A DNA stretch of 57,808 nucleotides, taken from IMG/VR virus record IMGVR_UViG_3300044695_002920, positions 1 through 57,808 of that record; one strand, 5' to 3'. Below the pieces are notes generated by a model, which was not told the DNA's origin, did not search any database, and saw nothing but the letters and a program-made list of their open reading frames with translations. This DNA is from a virus. Its lineage: Duplodnaviria > Caudoviricetes. Made by a program: the position numbers and the translations under genes. Positions 7,597-39,215 of this stretch are shown here, piece by piece; the first letter of the stretch is position 1, and each line of letters begins with the position of its first letter.

Positions 7597-7946
7597 TTCA
7601 AGTTCTCCAACTTGTAGATCGTGCGGAGGTACACTTCGGTGACGCCGTCGACGAGGTTACCGATGGCCCGGTTACCGCCGCAAATCTTCTCGTGATGCTC
7701 TTCGATCCATTCCGCGTCACCCTTCAGGACGTCGAGCACCTCGGACTTGGTGTCCTTGGGTGCTGGGATCGAGCCGACCAGACCGTTGACGGCCTGATGC
7801 GCCTCGACGAGGCTGTCAATCGCGTCGATGACGTCGTCGTAGAAGCCGCCCAGCGCCTGATGTTGGCTGTAGCTCTTCGTGCGCCAGTGGTTCCAATGCG
7901 CGAGGTTGCGCGCGTAGAAGACGCGGCTGATAAGTTGCTCAATCAT
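7593..7946 (-). CDS. Ferritin/Dps-like four-helix protein (DUF5856-like)
   Basis: HWNHWRTKSYSQHQALGGFYD...DSLVE and terminal TIYKLENLK pattern. Confidence 0.7.
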   Translation of the reverse strand: MIEQLISRVFYARNLAHWNHWRTKSYSQHQALGGFYDDVIDAIDSLVEAHQAVNGLVGSIPAPKDTKSEVLDVLKGDAEWIEEHHEKICGGNRAIGNLVDGVTEVYLRTIYKLENLK

Positions 7947-7966
7947 GGTGCGGATCCTTCCATTTT

Positions 7967-8008
7967 GGCGGCATCGGCGGTGAGGGAAAGACGACCGCCG
8001 ATGCCGCC
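7967..8008. promoter_or_regulatory. Perfect 15-bp stem-loop upstream of the ferritin-like/lysis cluster
   Basis: GGCGGCATCGGCGGT (7967-7981) pairs with ACCGCCGATGCCGCC (7994-8008); 12-nt loop. Confidence 0.6.
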
Positions 8009-8064
8009 GCCACGCAAGGGGAGCGCGCCTTGGGTGGTATCGCTAAGGGGCGCGCGTGGCATGC

Positions 8065-23726: not shown

Positions 23727-23997
23727 ACTGCCTCCTGTTTTGCTGACACTGCTGATACAACATAGTAGGTGCTTAATCAACAGTGCAACGCCAATCTACA
23801 CGGTGGTATATATACACCGAAGGAGCTGTGTATATACCACTGTTACTGTATACTACCACAGAGTGCAACATACGCAACAACCACAGTGCACGTTGCATCG
23901 CGTTGCAAGTGTTGCAAAAAAAGTTTGCATAAGGCTATTGCAATGTAAATCTGCATGTGCAATATACTGTGAGACAGCAACACGGAGTACCCAGACA
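23727..23997. promoter_or_regulatory. Divergent control region (AT-rich, inverted repeats, TGCA arrays); possible origin
   Basis: Strand switch; inverted repeat 23800-23812/23831-23843; TTGCA at 23893, 23903, 23912, 23925, 23938. Confidence 0.7.
23938..23997 (+). promoter_or_regulatory. Early promoter/operator plus conserved leader, copy 1
   Basis: TTGCAA...CAGCAACACGGAGTACCCAGACA-ATG. Confidence 0.75.
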
Positions 23998-24201
23998 ATG
24001 ACCGAACCGACCATCATCTTCTACGCAATGGACGCAGCTACCGCAGAAGCCGAGCTGGGCCTCTACGTCTCAAACCCTGCCGATAAGTATGTGATCGTCG
24101 AGTTCTGGGCCGAGGCCGACCAGTATGACTTCGGCGCGGCTTTCCGCACTCGCGCCGATCTCGAAGCTACCATGCGCGGCGAGAAGTATCAGTGGTATTG
24201 A
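23998..24201 (+). CDS. Early hypothetical protein (67 aa)
   Basis: ATG after the conserved leader and GGAG SD. Confidence 0.75.
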   Translation: MTEPTIIFYAMDAATAEAELGLYVSNPADKYVIVEFWAEADQYDFGAAFRTRADLEATMRGEKYQWY

Positions 24202-24225
24202 TCAGCAACAAGGAGTACCCAGACC

Positions 24226-24426
24226 ATGCAAACGACCACACACCAAGGCTGGACCATCAGCTACTGCAGCCACCGCCGCGCCTTCGAGGCCGTCGCGCCT
24301 GACTACGAACCGCTATGGCTCGGTGAGGCTGACGGCTGGGTCGACGGCGAGCGCTTCGACGCCAACACACTGGCCGAGGCCGTCGCCGAGATCGACGCCC
24401 GCATCGCAGAGGGGGCAGGCGCATGA
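24226..24426 (+). CDS. Early hypothetical protein
   Basis: Preceded by a leader copy GATCAGCAACAAGGAGTACCCAG. Confidence 0.75.
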   Translation: MQTTTHQGWTISYCSHRRAFEAVAPDYEPLWLGEADGWVDGERFDANTLAEAVAEIDARIAEGAGA

Positions 24427-26116: not shown

Positions 26117-26130
26117 CGACAAAATGCCTA

Positions 26131-26188: not shown

Positions 26189-26269
26189 ATGTCCCTAGAA
26201 ATGTTTATCCTGATCGGCATCATCCTGTGCATGTCGATCGTCGCCTATGATGAATGGAGTAAGTCATGA
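26189..26269 (+). CDS. 26-aa single-TM microprotein
   Basis: MSLEMFILIGIILCMSIVAYDEWSKS; AAGGAG SD; ATGA coupling to the next gene. Confidence 0.65.
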   Translation: MSLEMFILIGIILCMSIVAYDEWSKS

Positions 26270-27083: not shown

Positions 27084-27397
27084 CCACAGAAACACCACCC
27101 GACGATTGGGTTTTGCTCGAAGCTGCGAAGCGGTCCGATACATGGTGCCGCAGCATCGAATGGCTACGCGAATTATACGGTGTTAGTGGCTCGTTCCGCG
27201 CTCTCTGCGACATGATAGCAAAACACGAGAAACCACCAGCGGACCGCAAGCTGCTTTGTGCGCGTGAGGCAATGGCGGAGAACGCCGAAACATGCGGGTG
27301 GGGCGGGAAGTTTAGGAGCGGCAATTACGATGTCACCTACCACATAACCGTGCCCCTCCGCGCAATTGAGCTTTGGGAAGAGGGCTTTGGGAAATGA
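27080..27397 (+). CDS. Hypothetical protein (shares C-terminal module with 27785-28060)
   Basis: GTGA coupling; ADRKLLCA...RAIELWEEGFGK. Confidence 0.7.
   Translation: MTTETPPDDWVLLEAAKRSDTWCRSIEWLRELYGVSGSFRALCDMIAKHEKPPADRKLLCAREAMAENAETCGWGGKFRSGNYDVTYHITVPLRAIELWEEGFGK
27357..27397 (+). repeat. 41-bp direct repeat, copy 1 (copy 2 at 28020-28060)
   Basis: TCCGCGCAATTGAGCTTTGGGAAGA(G/A)GGCTTTGGGAAATGA, one mismatch. Confidence 0.9.
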
Positions 27398-27788: not shown

Positions 27789-28060
27789 CCACACACCACC
27801 CTGAGTGCGAAGACGCGACCGGCGCATATTTCGGTAGCTGCACCTGCGCTGCTATTAAGCGGAGGGAGGCACTGGACAACCTATTCGCCAGTGATGCCGA
27901 CCTTATAGAACTGGAGACAGGGCCTATGGAAGAGGCCACAGAAGCTGATCGCAAGCTGCTTTGCGCGCTTGAGGCTATGGAAAGCATACGAGGCGACGCC
28001 ACTCACTCTGAGATAGCCGTCCGCGCAATTGAGCTTTGGGAAGAAGGCTTTGGGAAATGA
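27785..28060 (+). CDS. Hypothetical protein
   Basis: ATGA-coupled; ends RAIELWEEGFGK. Confidence 0.7.
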   Translation: MTTHHPECEDATGAYFGSCTCAAIKRREALDNLFASDADLIELETGPMEEATEADRKLLCALEAMESIRGDATHSEIAVRAIELWEEGFGK

Positions 28061-28280: not shown

Positions 28281-28940
28281 ATGAAATTCCACCCAAGCGA
28301 CGAGGAGATCACCCGCGTGTGCTCCTACATCAGCGACGACAAGTACATCGCCTCACTCTACGGCGTGCCCCTCGAACGGGTGCGCATACTGCGCGGCCGA
28401 CAGGAGGCAGGCACCAAGAGCACTGCGCCCAAGGATCCGACGCCCATGTCGATAGCAGTCGTCGAGGGCGGCGACCGCAAGGCGCGCGAGGACGGCAAGC
28501 TGGGCTCCGAGGCCCTGCTCAAGGCGATCAATCGCTACTACAAGAAATATCACATCGACGGTTGCAGTTTGATATTGCAGGCCCCGCTTCCGGCTGCTAG
28601 GGAGGTGGCTCAGCAACCGAAGGACACCACCATGCAGTACTACATCAGCACCGAAAAGACCCTCAACGACCTGCTCAAGGAGCGGGGCGAGCAGGACATC
28701 TACATCCGCTGGAACGGATGTGAGGAAGCGCCCAACTACAAGGTCTATTTCCAAGAGGAGCTGACCGAACTGCTTCTTGCCGACCACGACGACGGCTACG
28801 AGCTGCAGCGCAACCCCATCGGCTCGCGCACCTTCGAGGGCGTCGACAGCGCCCGTAACAACGGCGAGGCCGTGCAGATCATCGTCGAGGAGATCCGCTC
28901 CGCGATCGCGAGCGGCGACTTACTGGAGGGAGACTGGTAA
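28281..28940 (+). CDS. Hypothetical protein; contains an in-frame internal start at 28632 with its own promoter/leader
   Basis: AAGGAG SD before 28281; second SD and ATG at 28632. Confidence 0.65.
   Translation: MKFHPSDEEITRVCSYISDDKYIASLYGVPLERVRILRGRQEAGTKSTAPKDPTPMSIAVVEGGDRKAREDGKLGSEALLKAINRYYKKYHIDGCSLILQAPLPAAREVAQQPKDTTMQYYISTEKTLNDLLKERGEQDIYIRWNGCEEAPNYKVYFQEELTELLLADHDDGYELQRNPIGSRTFEGVDSARNNGEAVQIIVEEIRSAIASGDLLEGDW
28562..28631 (+). promoter_or_regulatory. Early promoter/operator plus leader embedded in a CDS
   Basis: TTGCAGTTTGATATTGCAG...GCTAGGGA...TCAGCAACCGAAGGA. Confidence 0.7.
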
Positions 28941-31631: not shown

Positions 31632-31690
31632 TTGCAATACCTGATTGCAGTAACTATATGGGTTCTGTCAGCAACGAAAGGACAGACCCA
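31632..31690 (+). promoter_or_regulatory. Early promoter/operator plus leader
   Basis: TTGCAA-N17-TATATG; palindrome TGCAAT-ACCTG-ATTGCA; TCAGCAACGAAAGGA. Confidence 0.8.
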
Positions 31691-32020
31691 ATGGCTACCA
31701 AGTTTGATAATACCATCGACCTCGCATCGCAGGTTGTCGACCGTCTCGGCGACATCAAGGCGCAGATCGCCGAGCTGAAGGCAGTTGAGGCCAACCTCAT
31801 CGCCCTCATCATCAACACCGGCGACAGCGTCGTCGAGGGCAGCACGTTCCGTGCCGCTGTCAGCACCACCGCTGACCGCACCTCGCTCGACGTCAAGGCC
31901 GCAGAGGCCAAGCTGCGCGAGTTGGGTGTCGACGGTCGCTGGTTCTCGAAGAACCAGAAAGTCACGCGCGGCTACACCAGTGTCCGCGTCTCGGCGCGCA
32001 AGAGCGGGGGTGCCCTGTGA
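31691..32020 (+). CDS. Hypothetical protein
   Basis: ATG after the conserved leader. Confidence 0.75.
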   Translation: MATKFDNTIDLASQVVDRLGDIKAQIAELKAVEANLIALIINTGDSVVEGSTFRAAVSTTADRTSLDVKAAEAKLRELGVDGRWFSKNQKVTRGYTSVRVSARKSGGAL

Positions 32021-34102: not shown

Positions 34103-34687
34103 ATGGCAACCCGTATTATGCTTAAGAACGTCGTGCTGGCTTTCCCCGCACTGGCCGAGCCGCAGTCCTACGGGGACGGCGATCCAGCCTTTGGCGCTAA
34201 GTTCCCGATCGAGCCCGGTTCCGAGAACGAAATATTGATCGAGGAGGCGATGCTCGCCGAGGCGAATGCGCAGTGGGTAGACAAGGGCGAGAGCGTCCTC
34301 AAGATGCTCATCGAGGACGGCAAGGTCTGCTTCAGCAAGAAGGTCTACCGCTCGAAGAAGACCGGCGACGCCTATCAGGGCTTCGAGGGCAAGCACTACC
34401 TGTCGAGCCGCAATGCCTCGACCCAGCCCACCGTCTTCAACCAGTTTGGGGATCAGGTCACGGCCAAGGGCGAGATCGAGCGTCAGGCGTTCAGCGGTGC
34501 CGTTGTGGCTGCCTCCGTCGAGATCTGGGCACAGGACAACAAGTGGGGTCGGCGCATCAACTGCACGCTTCGCGGCGTGATGTTGACCGGCGAGGGCGAG
34601 AACTTCGGCGGCGGCTCGTCTCCGGCGTCCAGCGACGAGTTCGCCAGTTTGGCGAAGGGCAAGCCCGACGCGGAAGACTTCCTCTGA
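34103..34687 (+). CDS. DUF2815 single-stranded DNA-binding protein
   Basis: Between DUF2800 and polA; LRGV...GENFGGG...acidic tail ending DFL. Confidence 0.85.
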   Translation: MATRIMLKNVVLAFPALAEPQSYGDGDPAFGAKFPIEPGSENEILIEEAMLAEANAQWVDKGESVLKMLIEDGKVCFSKKVYRSKKTGDAYQGFEGKHYLSSRNASTQPTVFNQFGDQVTAKGEIERQAFSGAVVAASVEIWAQDNKWGRRINCTLRGVMLTGEGENFGGGSSPASSDEFASLAKGKPDAEDFL

Positions 34688-34923
34688 TGTCGGCCAACGA
34701 CCAGCTCCGCCTCTTCGTCGAGCGTCTCGAGCGCCTCGGCGAGGAGAAGGACGGCATCGCCGAGGACATCAAGTGTGTCTTCGCCGAGATGAAGAGCCAA
34801 GGCTACGACGCCAAGATCGTTCGCGAGATCCTGCGCCTGCGCAAGTTGAGCAAGGACGATCTGGACAATCGTAACGCCATCCTCCGCCTGTATGGCGAGC
34901 AGTTGGGTCTGGACTTCCTCTAA
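34687..34923 (+). CDS. gapR: GapR (DUF2312) nucleoid-associated protein homologue
   Basis: QLRLFVERLERLGEEKDGIAEDIKCVFAEMKSQGYDAKIVREILRLRK; TGATG coupling. Confidence 0.9.
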   Translation: MSANDQLRLFVERLERLGEEKDGIAEDIKCVFAEMKSQGYDAKIVREILRLRKLSKDDLDNRNAILRLYGEQLGLDFL

Positions 34924-34938
34924 CCCACAAACTAGATA

Positions 34939-35078
34939 GGGCGCGGCGGCTGTGCTACCCTCACTGCACAGTCGCCACCCTCCCTCCCTTCCGGTGAGGG
35001 CCGCAGGTTACACTGGGTGCTCCTTGTGTTGCTGATCCCCTGCGGCCCTCTCCCGAAGCGAGGTGAAGGATCAGCACC
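34939..35078 (+). ncRNA. Candidate structured regulatory RNA (two hairpins; loop 2 antisense to early-gene leaders)
   Basis: Stem 34945-34955/34966-34976; perfect stem 34996-35007/35039-35050; loop CTGGGTGCTCCTTGTGTTGCTGATC. Confidence 0.65.
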
Positions 35079-37157
35079 ATGAACACACTACATCTTGATA
35101 TCGAGACCTTCTGCGCGATGCCGATCACCGCAGGGGCGCACCGCTACGCCGAGGACGCCGAGGTCATGCTCATCGCCAAGGCGTGGGACGACGAGCCTGT
35201 CGAGGTCATCGACTGCACTGAGGGCGTCTGGGACACCATCGCCCCGCGCCTGCAGAACGACATCGACCGCGCCGAGCGCGTCGTCATCCACAACAGCTCA
35301 TTCGATCGCACTGTGCTGCGCCACAGGGGCGTCAGCGTGCCTACGGAGAAGATCACGGACAGCATGGTGCTCGCCCTGCAGCACGGCCTGCCGGGCAAGC
35401 TGGGGCAGCTCTGTGAGGCTCTGGGCGTGCCGCAGGACAAGGCCAAGGACAAACGCGGCTCGCGCCTCATTAATCTCTTCACAAAGCCCCGCCCGAAGAA
35501 TATAAAGATCAGACGGGCTACGCGGGAGACGCACCCTGATGAGTGGCAAGAGTTCATCGAATACGCCTCACTCGACGTGGACGCGATGCGAGAAGTATTG
35601 GCACGAACCCCTAGATGGAACGATACTCCAAGTGAGCGTCGACTGTGGCTCCTCGACCAAGACATTAACGACCGTGGTGTCTGCGTCGACACTGAACTCG
35701 CCAGCGCTGCTGTGCGAGCTTTCAACGGAACTTTGGGAACTCTGGCCACTCGTATCGAGGGACTTACCGGAGGGGCCGTAAGCAGCGCCACGCAGCGCGA
35801 CCGCATGCTGGCCTACCTGCGCGATCAGCAGGGCCTAGAGATAGCCGACCTGACCAAGGACACGCTGGCCAAGCTGCTGCGCTCCGACCTGTCGCCACAC
35901 GTCCGCGAGGTGCTTGAGGTGCGTCAGCAGGCCTCGGCGACCAGCCCAGCCAAGTACACGGCCCTACTGCTCGCCGCGTCGTCCGATGGGCGTCTGCGCG
36001 GCACTGTGCAGTTCTGCGGCGCTGCCCGCACTGGGCGCGACGCGGGCCGGATCTTCCAGCCGCAGAACCTGCCCCGCACGCCCGACTGGTTCGACGGCGA
36101 GGTGCAGGAGCTGACCGTGCGCGCCTTCAAGGAGGGCATGGCCGACGTCCTGTGGGACAATATCAGCGAGCGCTGCAGCATGGCCGTGCGCGGCTCTCTG
36201 GTGGCCGCCAAGGGTAAGAAGCTGGTCATCGCCGACCTGTCGAACATCGAGGGGCGCGTCCTCGCGTGGCTGGCCAACGAGGCGTGGAAGATCGAGGCCT
36301 TCAGGGCCTATGACCGCGGCGAGGGGCCTGACCTGTACAAGGTCACCGCCGGGCGCATCCTCGGCAAGGATCCGGCCGACATCACCAAGGAAGAGCGCCA
36401 GCTACAGGGCAAGGTGCCCGAGTTGGCCGGAGGCTATCAGGGCGGCGTCGGTGCCTACCGCGTCATGGGCGGCGCAGTGTTCGAGGCCATGACCGACGAG
36501 GAGATCCAAGAGATCGTCCACGCGTGGCGCGCGGCGCACCCGCGCACCAAGGCCCTGTGGTACGACGTCGAGCGCGCGGCGAAGGACGTCATCAAGAACC
36601 CCGGCAGCAGCGTCGACGTGCGGGGCCTGCTGCGCTTCGACATGCGCACGGACGAGTATGGCGCGAACTGGATGCGCATACGCCTGCCCAGCGGCCGGTA
36701 CCTGTGCTACAAGGATCCGAAGGTCGACGACGAGGGCTGCGAGCCTTGCAACGGTGAGGGCCTGATCCACGACATGGAGCACGGCTCTCCGGGCCTGTGG
36801 GTGCGCTGCGAGACGTGCGACGGCAAGGGGCGTCTGGGCGGCGGCCAGATCATCTACAAGGGCATCAACCAGTACACGCGCCAGTGGGCGACGCTGGAGA
36901 CCTACGGCGGCAAGCTGGTCGAGAACATCGTGCAGGCGATCGCGCGCGACGTCTTCATGTCCGGCCTGCGCCGCGCCGAGGAGCACGACTACCCAGTCGT
37001 CCTGCGCGTGCATGACGAGCTGGTCTGCGAGGTGCCTGACAGCAGCGGCTACACGCACGAGGTGCTGGCCAACCTGATGGGTGCCAACCCCGGCTGGGCC
37101 ATAGGCCTGCCGCTGGCCGCTGCGGGCTTCGAGACGCGCAGATATCGGAAGGACTGA
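35079..37157 (+). CDS. polA: DNA polymerase, family A (3'-5' exonuclease plus polymerase)
   Basis: DIET exo I, HNSSFD exo II, motif A DLSNIEGR, motif B RQLQGKVPELAGGYQGG, motif C VHDE. Confidence 0.96.
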   Translation: MNTLHLDIETFCAMPITAGAHRYAEDAEVMLIAKAWDDEPVEVIDCTEGVWDTIAPRLQNDIDRAERVVIHNSSFDRTVLRHRGVSVPTEKITDSMVLALQHGLPGKLGQLCEALGVPQDKAKDKRGSRLINLFTKPRPKNIKIRRATRETHPDEWQEFIEYASLDVDAMREVLARTPRWNDTPSERRLWLLDQDINDRGVCVDTELASAAVRAFNGTLGTLATRIEGLTGGAVSSATQRDRMLAYLRDQQGLEIADLTKDTLAKLLRSDLSPHVREVLEVRQQASATSPAKYTALLLAASSDGRLRGTVQFCGAARTGRDAGRIFQPQNLPRTPDWFDGEVQELTVRAFKEGMADVLWDNISERCSMAVRGSLVAAKGKKLVIADLSNIEGRVLAWLANEAWKIEAFRAYDRGEGPDLYKVTAGRILGKDPADITKEERQLQGKVPELAGGYQGGVGAYRVMGGAVFEAMTDEEIQEIVHAWRAAHPRTKALWYDVERAAKDVIKNPGSSVDVRGLLRFDMRTDEYGANWMRIRLPSGRYLCYKDPKVDDEGCEPCNGEGLIHDMEHGSPGLWVRCETCDGKGRLGGGQIIYKGINQYTRQWATLETYGGKLVENIVQAIARDVFMSGLRRAEEHDYPVVLRVHDELVCEVPDSSGYTHEVLANLMGANPGWAIGLPLAAAGFETRRYRKD

Positions 37158-37645: not shown

Positions 37646-37690
37646 GTTGCATGCTGTATACGGGCCTTCTCAGCAACGAAGGAGTACCAA
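37634..37690 (+). promoter_or_regulatory. Early promoter/operator plus leader
   Basis: TTGCAA-N17-TATACG; TGCAAT-CCTAA-GTTGCA; TCAGCAACGAAGGAGTACC. Confidence 0.8.
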
Positions 37691-38407
37691 ATGCCTACAG
37701 CAACACTCAAGCCCGTGAAGCGCGCCGCCAAGGGTCACAACCGCTTCTGCGGCCCGGCCGCCCTATCGATCATCGCGGGCATCGACACTGCCGAGGCCTC
37801 TGCCGTCATCCGGCACGTCAGCCGCAAGCGTAGCGTTAAGGGCACCAGCAACTGGGATATCTTACGCTCGCTCGCCCTGCTCGGCTTCAAGGCCAGCTCG
37901 GCCGCCAAGGTCGACCCGCTCAACCTCAAGACCAACCCGACGCTGGCCGCGTGGCTCAAGAGCGACGAGCGCGACGGCCAGTCGCTCTACCTGATCGCGG
38001 CCGGTTACCACTGGCAGGTCGTGCAGGGCCGCCGCTTCTGCTGCGGCATCACCAAGGACATCGTCTCGATCCGCGACGAGAAGGTCAAGCGCCGCGCCCG
38101 CATCAGCGGCGTCTGGAAGATCGAGCACGACCGCAAGGTGGCGCTGGCCGACGTGCTGCCCGCCAAGGTCAAGGCCAAGGACACCGAGGCGACCGTCCGC
38201 CGCAAGGCGCGGGAGCTGGCTGCCAAGCACGACATCGAGATCGAGATGTACCGCAACTACGACGGCGGCGAGTACTACACCAGCATCATGGTCTGGGGCC
38301 CGCGCGGCGTCGAGCTGGACAACGACCCGTTCGAGGGTGACCACTACGCCGAAGACTGGGCCGACGCGCTGGCGCGAGTGGAGGAGTACGCCAAGCTGGC
38401 GGCCTGA
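37691..38407 (+). CDS. Hypothetical protein (moron-like); N-terminal CGPAAL...H pattern suggests a papain-like fold
   Basis: Own promoter and terminator; FCGPAALSII and GYHWQVV motifs. Confidence 0.65.
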   Translation: MPTATLKPVKRAAKGHNRFCGPAALSIIAGIDTAEASAVIRHVSRKRSVKGTSNWDILRSLALLGFKASSAAKVDPLNLKTNPTLAAWLKSDERDGQSLYLIAAGYHWQVVQGRRFCCGITKDIVSIRDEKVKRRARISGVWKIEHDRKVALADVLPAKVKAKDTEATVRRKARELAAKHDIEIEMYRNYDGGEYYTSIMVWGPRGVELDNDPFEGDHYAEDWADALARVEEYAKLAA

Positions 38408-38456: not shown

Positions 38457-38513
38457 TTGCAATGTCGTATTGCATGTGCCACTAGGGTGCATCAGCAACA
38501 CGGAGTTAAGATC
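38457..38513 (+). promoter_or_regulatory. Early promoter/operator plus leader
   Basis: Palindrome TGCAAT-GTCGT-ATTGCA; TCAGCAACACGGAG. Confidence 0.8.
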
Positions 38514-39215
38514 ATGTCCTACGCTTTTATCGAAAACGAAGCCCGCTACGAAGCCGCCAAGTGGGCGCGCATCAAGGCCAATCGCGCCAAGAGTGGCCGC
38601 GCCAAGTGGCTGGCCGCGCACGACGATGCGCAGACCCTGTTCGACTGGCTCTTCTCGCAAGGTGAGTTCATCGGCGTTGAGCAGCTCGGCTCGCGCTGCT
38701 GCCGCTATGCCGACGGCCATGTCGAGCACGAGGACAACAAGTACGGCGTCTGCGGATGCAAGATCGTCAGCCACCCGCTGTCGTTCTACGCTCGCGGCGA
38801 CTTCCTCAACAAGATGCGCGGCACGATTGAAGAGTGGGGCGGCCTGACCGACGGCCAGCACGCCGCAGTCGCCAAGTCCTTCGCCAACGCCAAAGACAAG
38901 CTGGCCGGTCGCGAAGTGGCTCGCGCCGAGGCGAACGCCGCAGACCGCAACACCTGCCACGTCGGCACCGTCGGCGAGCGCCGCGACTTCGAGCTGACTG
39001 CCGAGCGCACGCACAGCTTCGACGGCCAGTTCGGCACGACGTACATCACGATCTTCCGCGACGCTGACAACAACGTCATCGTCTACAAGGGCAACCTCGC
39101 GTTTGGTCGCGGTGAGAAGGTGCGTGGCAAGGCCACCATCAAGGCGCACGACGTACGCGACGGTGTGCCGCAGACCATCATCGCCCGCCCCAAGTTTGAG
39201 GAGCACCAAGCATGA
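38514..39215 (+). CDS. Hypothetical protein with C-terminal OB-fold-like domain
   Basis: HVGTVGER...FRDADNNVIVYKG...KATIKAH..RDGVPQTIIARPK. Confidence 0.7.
   Translation: MSYAFIENEARYEAAKWARIKANRAKSGRAKWLAAHDDAQTLFDWLFSQGEFIGVEQLGSRCCRYADGHVEHEDNKYGVCGCKIVSHPLSFYARGDFLNKMRGTIEEWGGLTDGQHAAVAKSFANAKDKLAGREVARAEANAADRNTCHVGTVGERRDFELTAERTHSFDGQFGTTYITIFRDADNNVIVYKGNLAFGRGEKVRGKATIKAHDVRDGVPQTIIARPKFEEHQA

Follow-up and report, generated by a model that had tools for sequence, protein, structure and literature searches.

A conserved two-hairpin leader of a phage DNA polymerase operon carries a loop complementary to the leaders of replication-module genes

The gene for the family A DNA polymerase (polA) in the complete uncultured virus record IMGVR_UViG_3300044695_002920, a stretch of 57,808 bases that is called the window here and whose positions serve as coordinates unless a locus is named, is preceded by an element of two hairpins, the second of which presents a large loop antisense to the leader shared by genes of the replication module. 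Judged from comparative sequence analysis, the polA-sense strand encodes a genuine structured RNA here, one that is conserved, and even on a cautious reading the comparison identifies it as a new, well-supported structured leader of a phage DNA polymerase operon. We further propose, with a probability of roughly 55%, that the antisense loop embedded in this leader links expression of the polA operon to the leader-bearing transcripts.

In the window a perfect 12-bp stem, GAGGGCCGCAGG (34996-35007) with CCTGCGGCCCTC (35039-35050), closes a 31-nucleotide (nt) loop (35008-35038), and the arms of hairpin 2 extend to 34983-35007/35039-35063 as a 25-nt imperfect inverted repeat with 88% complementarity. 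An initial annotation of this DNA had described the stem, the loop and an extension to about 34983/35063, all of which are present in the sequence. The 3' base of hairpin 2 reaches into the purine-rich Shine-Dalgarno (SD) region of polA. When 34925-35095 is folded, the + strand gives z = -4.76, with none of 200 shuffles folding as well, and the - strand gives z = -3.45, with one of 200 shuffles as good. A covariance model of the element matches the window at 34967-35091 on the + strand with 67.9 bits (E = 3e-18). The reverse complement of the loop, GATCAGCAACACAAGGAGCACCCAG, occurs a single time in the window, at 35013-35037 on the - strand, and is a copy of an (A)TCAGCAAC-SD leader minus the start codon.

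Polymerase relatives for the comparison came from IMG/VR (299 found, 80 kept) and from genome contigs; 78 loci have sequence upstream of polA (76 of the 80, L091 and the window), the covariance model and its alignment comprise 47 distinct copies of the element with 30 distinct loops, and six genomes, the window and G001-G005, are complete. The element is found in 76 of the 78 loci, in 73 by motif plus fold and in three more (L019, L073 and L075) by the covariance model, which detects no element in L041 or in L087 (only 237 nt upstream) and nothing in Caulobacter phage RW or in enterobacterial prophage-like loci. Each of the six complete genomes has exactly one strong model match, on the polymerase strand, and conservation reaches down to about 54% polymerase identity. 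Where relatives have genes inserted before polA, the element remains at the 5' end of the operon; the insert between element and polA is often an open reading frame (ORF) of 95-99 amino acids ending ...GRVSEILHGKR (for example L013 1170-1457 and L043 9705-10004), which takes over the start region, with ATCAGC before its ATG. Pfam searches of this inserted ORF and of four leader-bearing genes gave nothing above threshold, the inserted ORF yielding only a weak HTH_32 hint, and a blastn search of 34925-35095 against GenBank phages gave no match. Neither of two outcomes that the initial annotation had set as decisive against its proposal, a hairpin missing from relatives or a loop that does not co-vary with the leaders, was found, given the 76 loci and the three co-varying lineages described below.

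The alignment of the 47 copies speaks for folding at the RNA level. RNAalifold predicts 27 pairs, 19 of which have changes on both sides, against 10.7 in shuffled alignments and 5-11 in slid controls (none of 500 shuffles reaches 19), and 96.8% of the alignment cells are paired, against 85.3% after shuffling and 44-58% in the slid controls. Over the 22 pairs of the main stem in the 47 sequences, 975 cells are Watson-Crick, 33 are G.U and only 3 are A.C, indicating that the polA-sense strand is the folding strand. In every copy, five pairs at the base of the stem connect CCUC(U/C) with purines of the SD, and the basal pairs CCUC(U/C)/(G/A)GAGG (columns 20-23 with 119-122) are kept in 46-47 of the 47; the SD involved is that of a + strand gene. 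The SD is thus partly buried in every copy, base-paired within a conserved structure of the 5' untranslated region as in an SD-sequestering operator. Two imperfect positions, 11 and 14 pairs below the loop, are also conserved; one is C.A in 29, U.U in 17 and C.U in 1 of the 47 copies, and the second is mixed. RNase III processing sites typically span some two helical turns of RNA duplex, in many cases interrupted by an internal loop where the cut is made; the stem described here has 22 pairs plus two conserved non-Watson-Crick positions. Within the loop a pyrimidine anti-SD lies 2-8 nt 5' of the core in all 47 elements, against 28% of shuffled loops. In the commonest lineage the loop can fold a small inner hairpin from its 5' half, and GUUGCUGAUA(C/A) stays single-stranded.

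The motif to which this loop is complementary recurs in the window at the starts of replication-module genes. TCAGCAAC occurs 13 times against 1.8 expected (none of 100 shuffles reaches 13), and six of its + strand copies (24202, 26166, 28610, 31668, 37670 and 38492), together with ACAGCAAC at 23974, directly precede an SD and an ATG, in agreement with the earlier statement that the reverse complement of the loop is essentially the consensus leader. The loop is complementary to the leader-SD segment of these seven genes, that is, a recognition loop faces the initiation regions of its candidate targets, and the spacer of the leaders, (T/C)ACCCA, has its complement in TGGGTG (35015-35020) of the loop. 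Two of the seven leaders lie downstream of polA. TTGCA boxes recur at the leaders of the window, and in the 33 leaders of the six complete genomes a TTG(C/T)A box begins 34-39 nt before the T of TCAGCAAC in 29, and 35-36 nt before it in 24. This distance, with a 17-nt spacer to a TATA-like -10, places (A)TCAGCAAC at the predicted transcription start, and hence at the predicted 5' end of the transcript. Such a box is absent from three leaders, which come after a stop codon or a hairpin instead (window 24202, G002 20380 and G003 21378); these leaders keep the motif, indicating that it is tied to the translation start region and not only to the promoter. As the initial annotation had stated, the inverted copy before polA has no TTGCAA promoter behind it, there being no TTGCA box upstream on the - strand.

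Pairing between loop and leaders was assessed by a duplex scan of the loop against 23106 windows on both strands of the whole window sequence (background mean -18.7, standard deviation 4.0 kcal/mol). The loop pairs over 11+12 bases with 24200-24222 and over 9+11 bases with 23975-23994, each duplex with one G.U pair and a 2-nt bulge; both pairings had been read from the sequence before, and both hold, being the two best non-self duplexes genome-wide (-41.2 and -37.4 kcal/mol, the next best at -34.2). Among the non-self partners of the respective loops, leaders rank 1 and 2 in the window, 1, 2 and 4 in G001, 1 in G002 and 4 in G005, and in these four genomes the loop is in addition complementary to the spacer between SD and AUG of one specific leader. 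The match to the leaders, both in the window and in G001-G005, stops at the loop borders and does not extend into the stem, so that strand invasion would not release the SD at the base of the stem. The suggestion that the element works as a toehold-type switch is therefore not borne out, as the trigger match does not run into the stem that hides the SD.

Further evidence for a contact between loop and leaders comes from the lineages in which both have changed. L019 has the loop GTTGTTGA and four + strand leader sites TCAACAAC, the sole TCAGCAAC of this locus lacks an SD, and the two best duplex partners of the loop within the locus are two of the TCAACAAC leaders. The L079/L085 group has the loop TTGCTTGA and the promoter-proximal leaders TCAAGCAA and CCAAGCAA, that is, (T/C)CAAGCAA, and no TCAGCAAC leader was found in its loci. 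The L007/L009 group has CTCAGCAAC both in the loop complement and in the one available leader, where most others have ATCAGCAAC. At L069, GAGCAAC stands before the ATG both in a leader and in the operon's own start region, and an extra GTTGCTC in the loop is its complement. One leader of L014 (12472) reads TCAACAAC while its other leaders and the loop keep the G form, so the L019-type variant also occurs as a single-leader polymorphism. A C-to-U change in the loop keeps G.U pairs with unchanged leaders, which offers a neutral path for co-evolution at the RNA level. Loop and leaders thus appear to co-vary in three variant lineages, a qualitative result that comprises few events, shared among related genomes.

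The same loop has a second candidate partner in its own operon. The segment TGCTGATCC (35030-35038) can pair with GGATCAGCA (35068-35076), a cis contact already proposed in the initial annotation, which is present and co-varies in relatives. The 3' segment of the loop finds 7-12 contiguous complementary bases between SD and start codon in 27 of the 47 copies, or in 28 if L043, with a 10-nt match seen by eye, is counted; shuffled spacers reach 7 contiguous bases in 0.4% of trials. The flanks of the contact co-vary as TAC/GTA, TAAC/GTTA, TACAC/GTGTA and TCC/GGA, and the pairs of loop and start region include GCUGAUAC with GUAUCAGC, GCUGAUAAC with GUUAUCAGC, GCUGAUACAC with GUGUAUCAGC and GCUGAUCC with GGAUCAGC. 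The remaining 19-20 copies, among them L019 and the L079 group, whose loops changed with the leaders, lack a cis partner but have kept the loop; the cis contact, which the co-varying flanks indicate is real in many lineages, therefore cannot be the sole reason for loop retention.

The start of the polA transcript can be predicted from the relatives, most of which contain TTGGCN-N17-TATAnn. Its -10 immediately follows the GapR-like gene's stop codon, and the first hairpin comes about 7 nt further on. The conserved TTGGCN falls within the last codons of the GapR-like gene, and this sequence appears to be the polA operon's own promoter, embedded in the end of the preceding gene. In the window the spacer to TTGGGT is 7 nt longer, and L013 likewise has 7 extra bases; the assignment is weaker in the window, where the spacing differs. 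Provided that the possible promoter in the window (Table 1) is real, the transcript would have hairpin 1 at its 5' terminus; at this position relatives also have a hairpin, but one that differs in sequence. In Caulobacter phage RW (L011 11905-12000) hairpin 1 is kept and directly follows a CTAGGG motif that lies 3' of the gene preceding polA, and hairpin 2 is different, fully paired, with a base that covers the SD (CUCCG/CGGAG) and no anti-leader loop. This comparison suggests that the two-hairpin layout is older than the anti-leader loop. The words promoter, hairpin and stem-loop do not occur in the text of the paper on the RW-group phages (PMC11053796).

Several other identities of the element were considered and rejected. 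Hairpin 2 is no terminator, as there is no U run and its 3' arm leads into the purine-rich SD sequence; a search of 34500-35400 found no terminator-like site. Searched at the gathering thresholds, the whole window gave no match to Rfam 15, and a scan of 34850-35150 with E up to 10 gave only chance-level hits, the best of them, a miRNA model, reaching 23.8 bits where the cut-off is 100; in the same interval Lambda_thermo reached 12 bits (cut-off 50), and no antisense-RNA family was listed. Membership in a known Rfam family (phage antisense RNAs, ROSE-type or lambda cIII thermosensors) was thus rejected, all being below the gathering thresholds. An N4-type or single-strand DNA promoter hairpin was rejected since the stem is conserved in its pairing and not in its sequence, and a small - strand ORF since its GTG-TAA is confined to the lineage of the window. 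As a separate observation, a 16-bp G+C-rich hairpin without an anti-leader loop stands just 5' of a late-strand gene (7934-8034, - strand), gives a weak covariance-model match (20.9 bits, E = 0.001), and is followed by a start region, GGAAGGATCCGCACCATG, closely like that of polA, GAAGGATCAGCACCATG.

The mechanism that we envisage is based on the 5' leader of the polA operon mRNA, in which the first hairpin would follow the likely promoter and the second would cover the SD region with its base. The large loop of hairpin 2 would display an antisense copy of the standard leader, (A)UCAGCAAC, a short linker, GGAG and an A/C-rich spacer, and this leader would head five to seven transcription units of the replication module, 35-36 nt past the TTGCAA box and at the expected transcription start. 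Loop and leaders may pair in trans, or over a long range on read-through transcripts, with the exposed GUUGCUGAU as the seed and the anti-SD as an extension of the pairing, and such pairing would tie the polA operon and the leader-bearing transcripts together. In the majority of lineages this loop segment would also form a pseudoknot with the start region of its own operon, which would then vie with leader RNAs for the loop. Translation of the leader-bearing mRNAs might be blocked at their ribosome-binding sites by the leader of the polymerase mRNA or by a stem-loop processed out of that leader; abundant leader RNAs might pull the loop off the polymerase start region; or both might occur. RNase III or another nuclease may release the upper stem-loop as a small RNA. 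The simplest account of these observations would be an RNA-level interaction of loop and leaders, with the operon's own start region as a competitor in most lineages. A bolder version, which we put forward only tentatively, makes one mRNA leader the hub of a regulon: its loop would read the 5' end shared by every promoter-proximal message of the replication module, would have co-evolved with five to seven of these messages, and would tie their accumulation to polymerase synthesis by RNA pairing alone, as a natural many-target loop-mediated riboregulator that is possibly freed as a small RNA.

A rather unlikely alternative is that the element acts in cis only, as a translational operator in which the hairpin hides the SD, the loop pseudoknot hides the spacer and the AUG, and the polymerase is kept low until the structure is opened by an RNase III cut of the stem of about 22 bp, by temperature, or by a protein such as the polymerase itself; the likeness of loop and leaders would be a by-product of the start region carrying the same AUCAGC element. 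Pairing of the stem base with the SD purines in 47 of 47 elements fits such an operator, as do cis pairing of at least 7 nt in 27 of 47 with co-varying flanks, the conserved non-Watson-Crick positions 11 and 14 pairs below the loop, which are of the kind likened to nuclease or thermosensor sites, and the lack of a visible discrete small-RNA end or a terminator in 34500-35400. It leaves unexplained, however, why the 19-20 copies without a cis partner keep the full anti-leader loop, why the loops of L019 and of the L079 group, which lack a cis partner, changed with the leaders, and why an anti-SD without a consistent cis partner is found in all 47 loops; moreover, the loop mirrors the order leader, linker, SD and spacer, whereas the own start region consists of an SD followed by AUCAGC. 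Quite improbable, in our view, is that the motif is read as double-stranded DNA, with ATCAGCAAC recognised by a phage or host protein, or by RNA polymerase, where transcription from the TTGCAA promoters starts; its inverted copy in front of polA would then be an extra binding site (operator or roadblock), and the hairpin a separate feature of the mRNA. Leaders and loop of a genome do change together, as if the specificity of one protein had drifted, and the spacing between motif and -35 box is constant in 24-29 of the 33 leaders. The boxless leaders keep the motif nevertheless (window 24202, G002 20380, G003 21378), the loop retains an SD complement at variable distance and in several genomes a spacer complement, for which a DNA-binding protein would have no use, co-varying stem arms and G.U pairs surround the site in every case, and the orientation of the site is invariably antisense to the polA message.

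Two further accounts seem very improbable. A - strand antisense RNA across the polA start could expose, in a hairpin loop, a mimic of the leader, SD included, and so serve as a decoy for ribosomes or for a leader-binding factor; the - strand folds well too (z = -3.45), the conserved C.A position becomes G.U on that strand, and the mimic of the window reads AAGGAG-N6-GTG-TAA, a start followed by a stop. This conflicts with the 33 G.U against 3 A.C cells of the + strand main stem and with a - strand model that scores 30-70 bits lower; the - strand has no TTGCA box, the GTG-TAA is not retained in relatives, and the element stays at the operon start while the downstream + strand gene varies among them. 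Equally doubtful is that the element is a functionless relic of a promoter-leader cassette that was once duplicated in inverted orientation, has been inherited since and was kept uniform by gene conversion. The promoter-leader cassettes are indeed repeated DNA that could recombine, 54 nt at 26120 and 38446 being 76% identical. A relic would hardly persist in 76 of the 78 loci, including relatives with a polymerase identity of only about 54%, its stems rebuilt by compensatory changes while the loop core is unchanged, and the cassette was copied in its transcribed part only, never with the promoter.

The proposed antisense link between the polA leader and the replication-module leaders has weak points of its own. 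A consensus scan of 34500-35400 found no sigma-70 promoter, so the transcript start is a predicted one, and the contigs from RNA-labelled runs are uninformative on expression, since they may be DNA and have neither ends nor strand. The initial annotation had expected the leaders to rank top among the partners of the loop, which is true of 24200 and 23975, at ranks 1 and 2; the other five window leaders, at -25.6 to -31.5 kcal/mol, lie inside the energy tail of a GC-rich genome and match the loop by motif and not by outstanding energy, and the energy percentiles of leaders are partly circular, as leaders were chosen by motif. G003 and G004 have no leader among the 8 best duplexes genome-wide, and the commonest lineage matches by a 9-10-nt seed plus GGAG only; the universal part is thus the 9-10-nt seed and the anti-SD, not a 20-bp duplex. 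Because the pairing stops short of the stem, release of the SD would not be achieved by pairing alone; pairing over more than about one helical turn within a closed loop would be topologically strained; and one leader transcript facing five to seven kinds of target poses a problem of stoichiometry. A joint change of all leaders in a genome fits a shared protein reader of the motif equally well, and the stem position that is C.A in 29 of 47 elements would be G.U on the - strand. The distant relatives L073 (6170-6286) and L075 (8386-8515), at 57-59% polymerase identity, keep the hairpin with unrelated loops, and a scan of these two loci for loop partners found none resembling a leader. Of the multi-target riboregulator first suggested for this DNA, the conserved hairpin, its compensatory stem, the polA-strand RNA and the covariation of loop and leaders in three lineages are upheld; the 20-23-bp match does not extend to the commonest lineage, with its 9-10-nt seed and anti-SD, nor the cis pairing to 19-20 of the 47 copies.

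Among known systems, several share parts of the proposed design. In RNA-OUT of IS10 the loop makes the first contact with the 5' end of RNA-IN, and imperfections of the stem matter. This RNA is the closest analogue found in print, described in PMC5006887 as a 69-nt transcript from the opposite strand of its single target, RNA-IN, with pairing that blocks ribosome binding. Both are stem-loop RNAs complementary to an initiation region at the 5' end of a target message, the pairing being predicted in our case; unlike RNA-OUT, the phage loop forms part of an mRNA leader, lies at a distance from its candidate targets in the genome and would face five to seven of them. The anatomy is that of a classical antisense RNA, a long imperfect stem and a large recognition loop aimed at the 5' end of a message including its ribosome-binding site. 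A discrete RNA with its own promoter and terminator opposite the target is not what we find, as the element lies on the same strand as the leaders, 2.6-11 kb from them, and runs into the polA start with no terminator behind it. The c4 antisense RNA of phages P1 and P7 has its targets downstream on the same transcript. c4 of P1 (PMC8546580) is the nearest phage analogue, an antisense RNA from the leader of the immI operon that acts on ribosome-binding regions, and our element would likewise be a phage antisense element in an operon leader, with ribosome-binding regions as its predicted targets. In contrast, c4 controls immunity and the antirepressor with targets in its own operon, whereas the element described here precedes a polymerase gene and has its candidate targets across the replication module.

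Toehold switches and loop-mediated riboregulators combine an SD in a hairpin with a single-stranded region that receives the trigger. The polA leader likewise has its SD in a hairpin together with a single-stranded loop, but toehold switches release their SD through invasion of the stem by the trigger, whereas here the complementarity halts at the loop borders. Small RNAs of the GcvB type use a G/U-rich seed that meets a C/A-rich element upstream of the SD in several messages. GUUGCUGAU is comparable as a G/U-rich single-stranded seed against a C/A-rich leader element; GcvB is chromosomal, Hfq-dependent and free-standing, in contrast to a seed that lies in a phage mRNA leader and a motif at the predicted 5' end of its targets. 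Messages of T7 contain long imperfect intercistronic stems for RNase III processing, and RegB of T4 inactivates early messages at the SD as the phage passes from one phase to the next. Both are functional analogies only, neither having a conserved loop complementary to other leaders. To our knowledge, most described cases of antisense control in phages are single pairs that overlap, and no description of such an element was found in the open-access literature searched. The comparison suggests that the element is a new form of antisense and leader-based control. A loop that matches a leader family genome-wide and tracks its changes in at least three lineages is the type of evidence usually needed for an RNA-RNA interaction. 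If the proposed link is true, it would amount to a timing switch of the lytic module built from RNA alone, to a natural many-target riboregulator design that can be set beside the engineered ones, and to a new RNA family that is common in lake-water phages; the natural compensatory variants make the regulatory reading directly testable.

Table 1. Coordinates of the polA leader element, the replication-module leaders and neighbouring genes in the window
Feature	Position	Strand	Remarks
Possible polA-operon promoter	34910..34938	+	-35-like TGGACT (34910-34915), 17 nt, -10-like TAGATA (34933-34938); predicted
Hairpin 1, 11-bp stem and 10-nt loop	34945..34976	+	Fold prediction
Hairpin 2, long imperfect stem carrying the anti-leader loop	34981..35066	+	About 22 pairs and two conserved non-Watson-Crick positions
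Upper stem of hairpin 2, 5' arm	34996..35007	+	Perfect 12 bp
Anti-leader loop, 31 nt	35008..35038	+	Anti-SD CTCCT 35020-35024; core GTTGCTGA 35028-35035
Upper stem of hairpin 2, 3' arm	35039..35050	+	Perfect 12 bp
polA translation start region	35060..35081	+	GAGGTGAAGGA (SD), GGATCAGCA (35068-35076), ATG 35079
Family A DNA polymerase gene (polA), 692 amino acids	35079..37157	+	Pfam PF00476
Leader of first + strand gene (67 amino acids), ACAGCAAC-SD-ATG	23974..24000	+	Downstream of a TTGCAA box; -37.4 kcal/mol
Leader of second gene (66 amino acids)	24202..24228	+	Right after stop of first gene, no promoter box; best loop match, -41.2 kcal/mol
Leader before ORF of 26 amino acids	26166..26191	+	ORF overlaps start of winged-helix gene (26266)
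Leader TCAGCAAC-SD-ATG	28610..28634	+	
Leader of operon ending at GapR-like gene	31668..31693	+	Operon just 5' of the element
Leader of gene after polA (238 amino acids)	37670..37693	+	
Leader TCAGCAAC-SD-ATG	38492..38516	+	
Primase-helicase gene	29541	+	+ strand module
DUF2800 nuclease gene	32824	+	+ strand module
GapR-like DNA-binding protein gene	34273	+	+ strand module, directly before the polA element
Mom-like protein and SNF2 helicase genes		+	+ strand module

The structural genes of the window are on the - strand, and the + strand module occupies about 23.7-41.4 kb (Table 1). The closest cultured phages are those of the Caulobacter phage RW group, with 53.5% polymerase identity. DNA of this phage is common in lake-water metagenomes, 17 DNA runs containing at least half of the sampled words of the window. 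Three RNA-labelled runs carry window shares of 0.06-0.10, with only short contigs, one of which (151 nt, run X18) spans 34905-35054 with zero differences; this run is probably DNA.

Two minor observations concern other genes of the replication module. The ORF of 26 amino acids at 26189-26269 is hydrophobic (MSLEMFILIGII...), and its stop overlaps the start of a gene for a winged-helix protein of 171 amino acids (MarR/HTH_24-like) at 26266, which suggests that the two are translationally coupled. A 44-nt direct repeat at 27354-27397 and 28017-28060 (95% identity) and a second pair at 27238 and 27943 (87%) indicate two tandem paralogous small genes.

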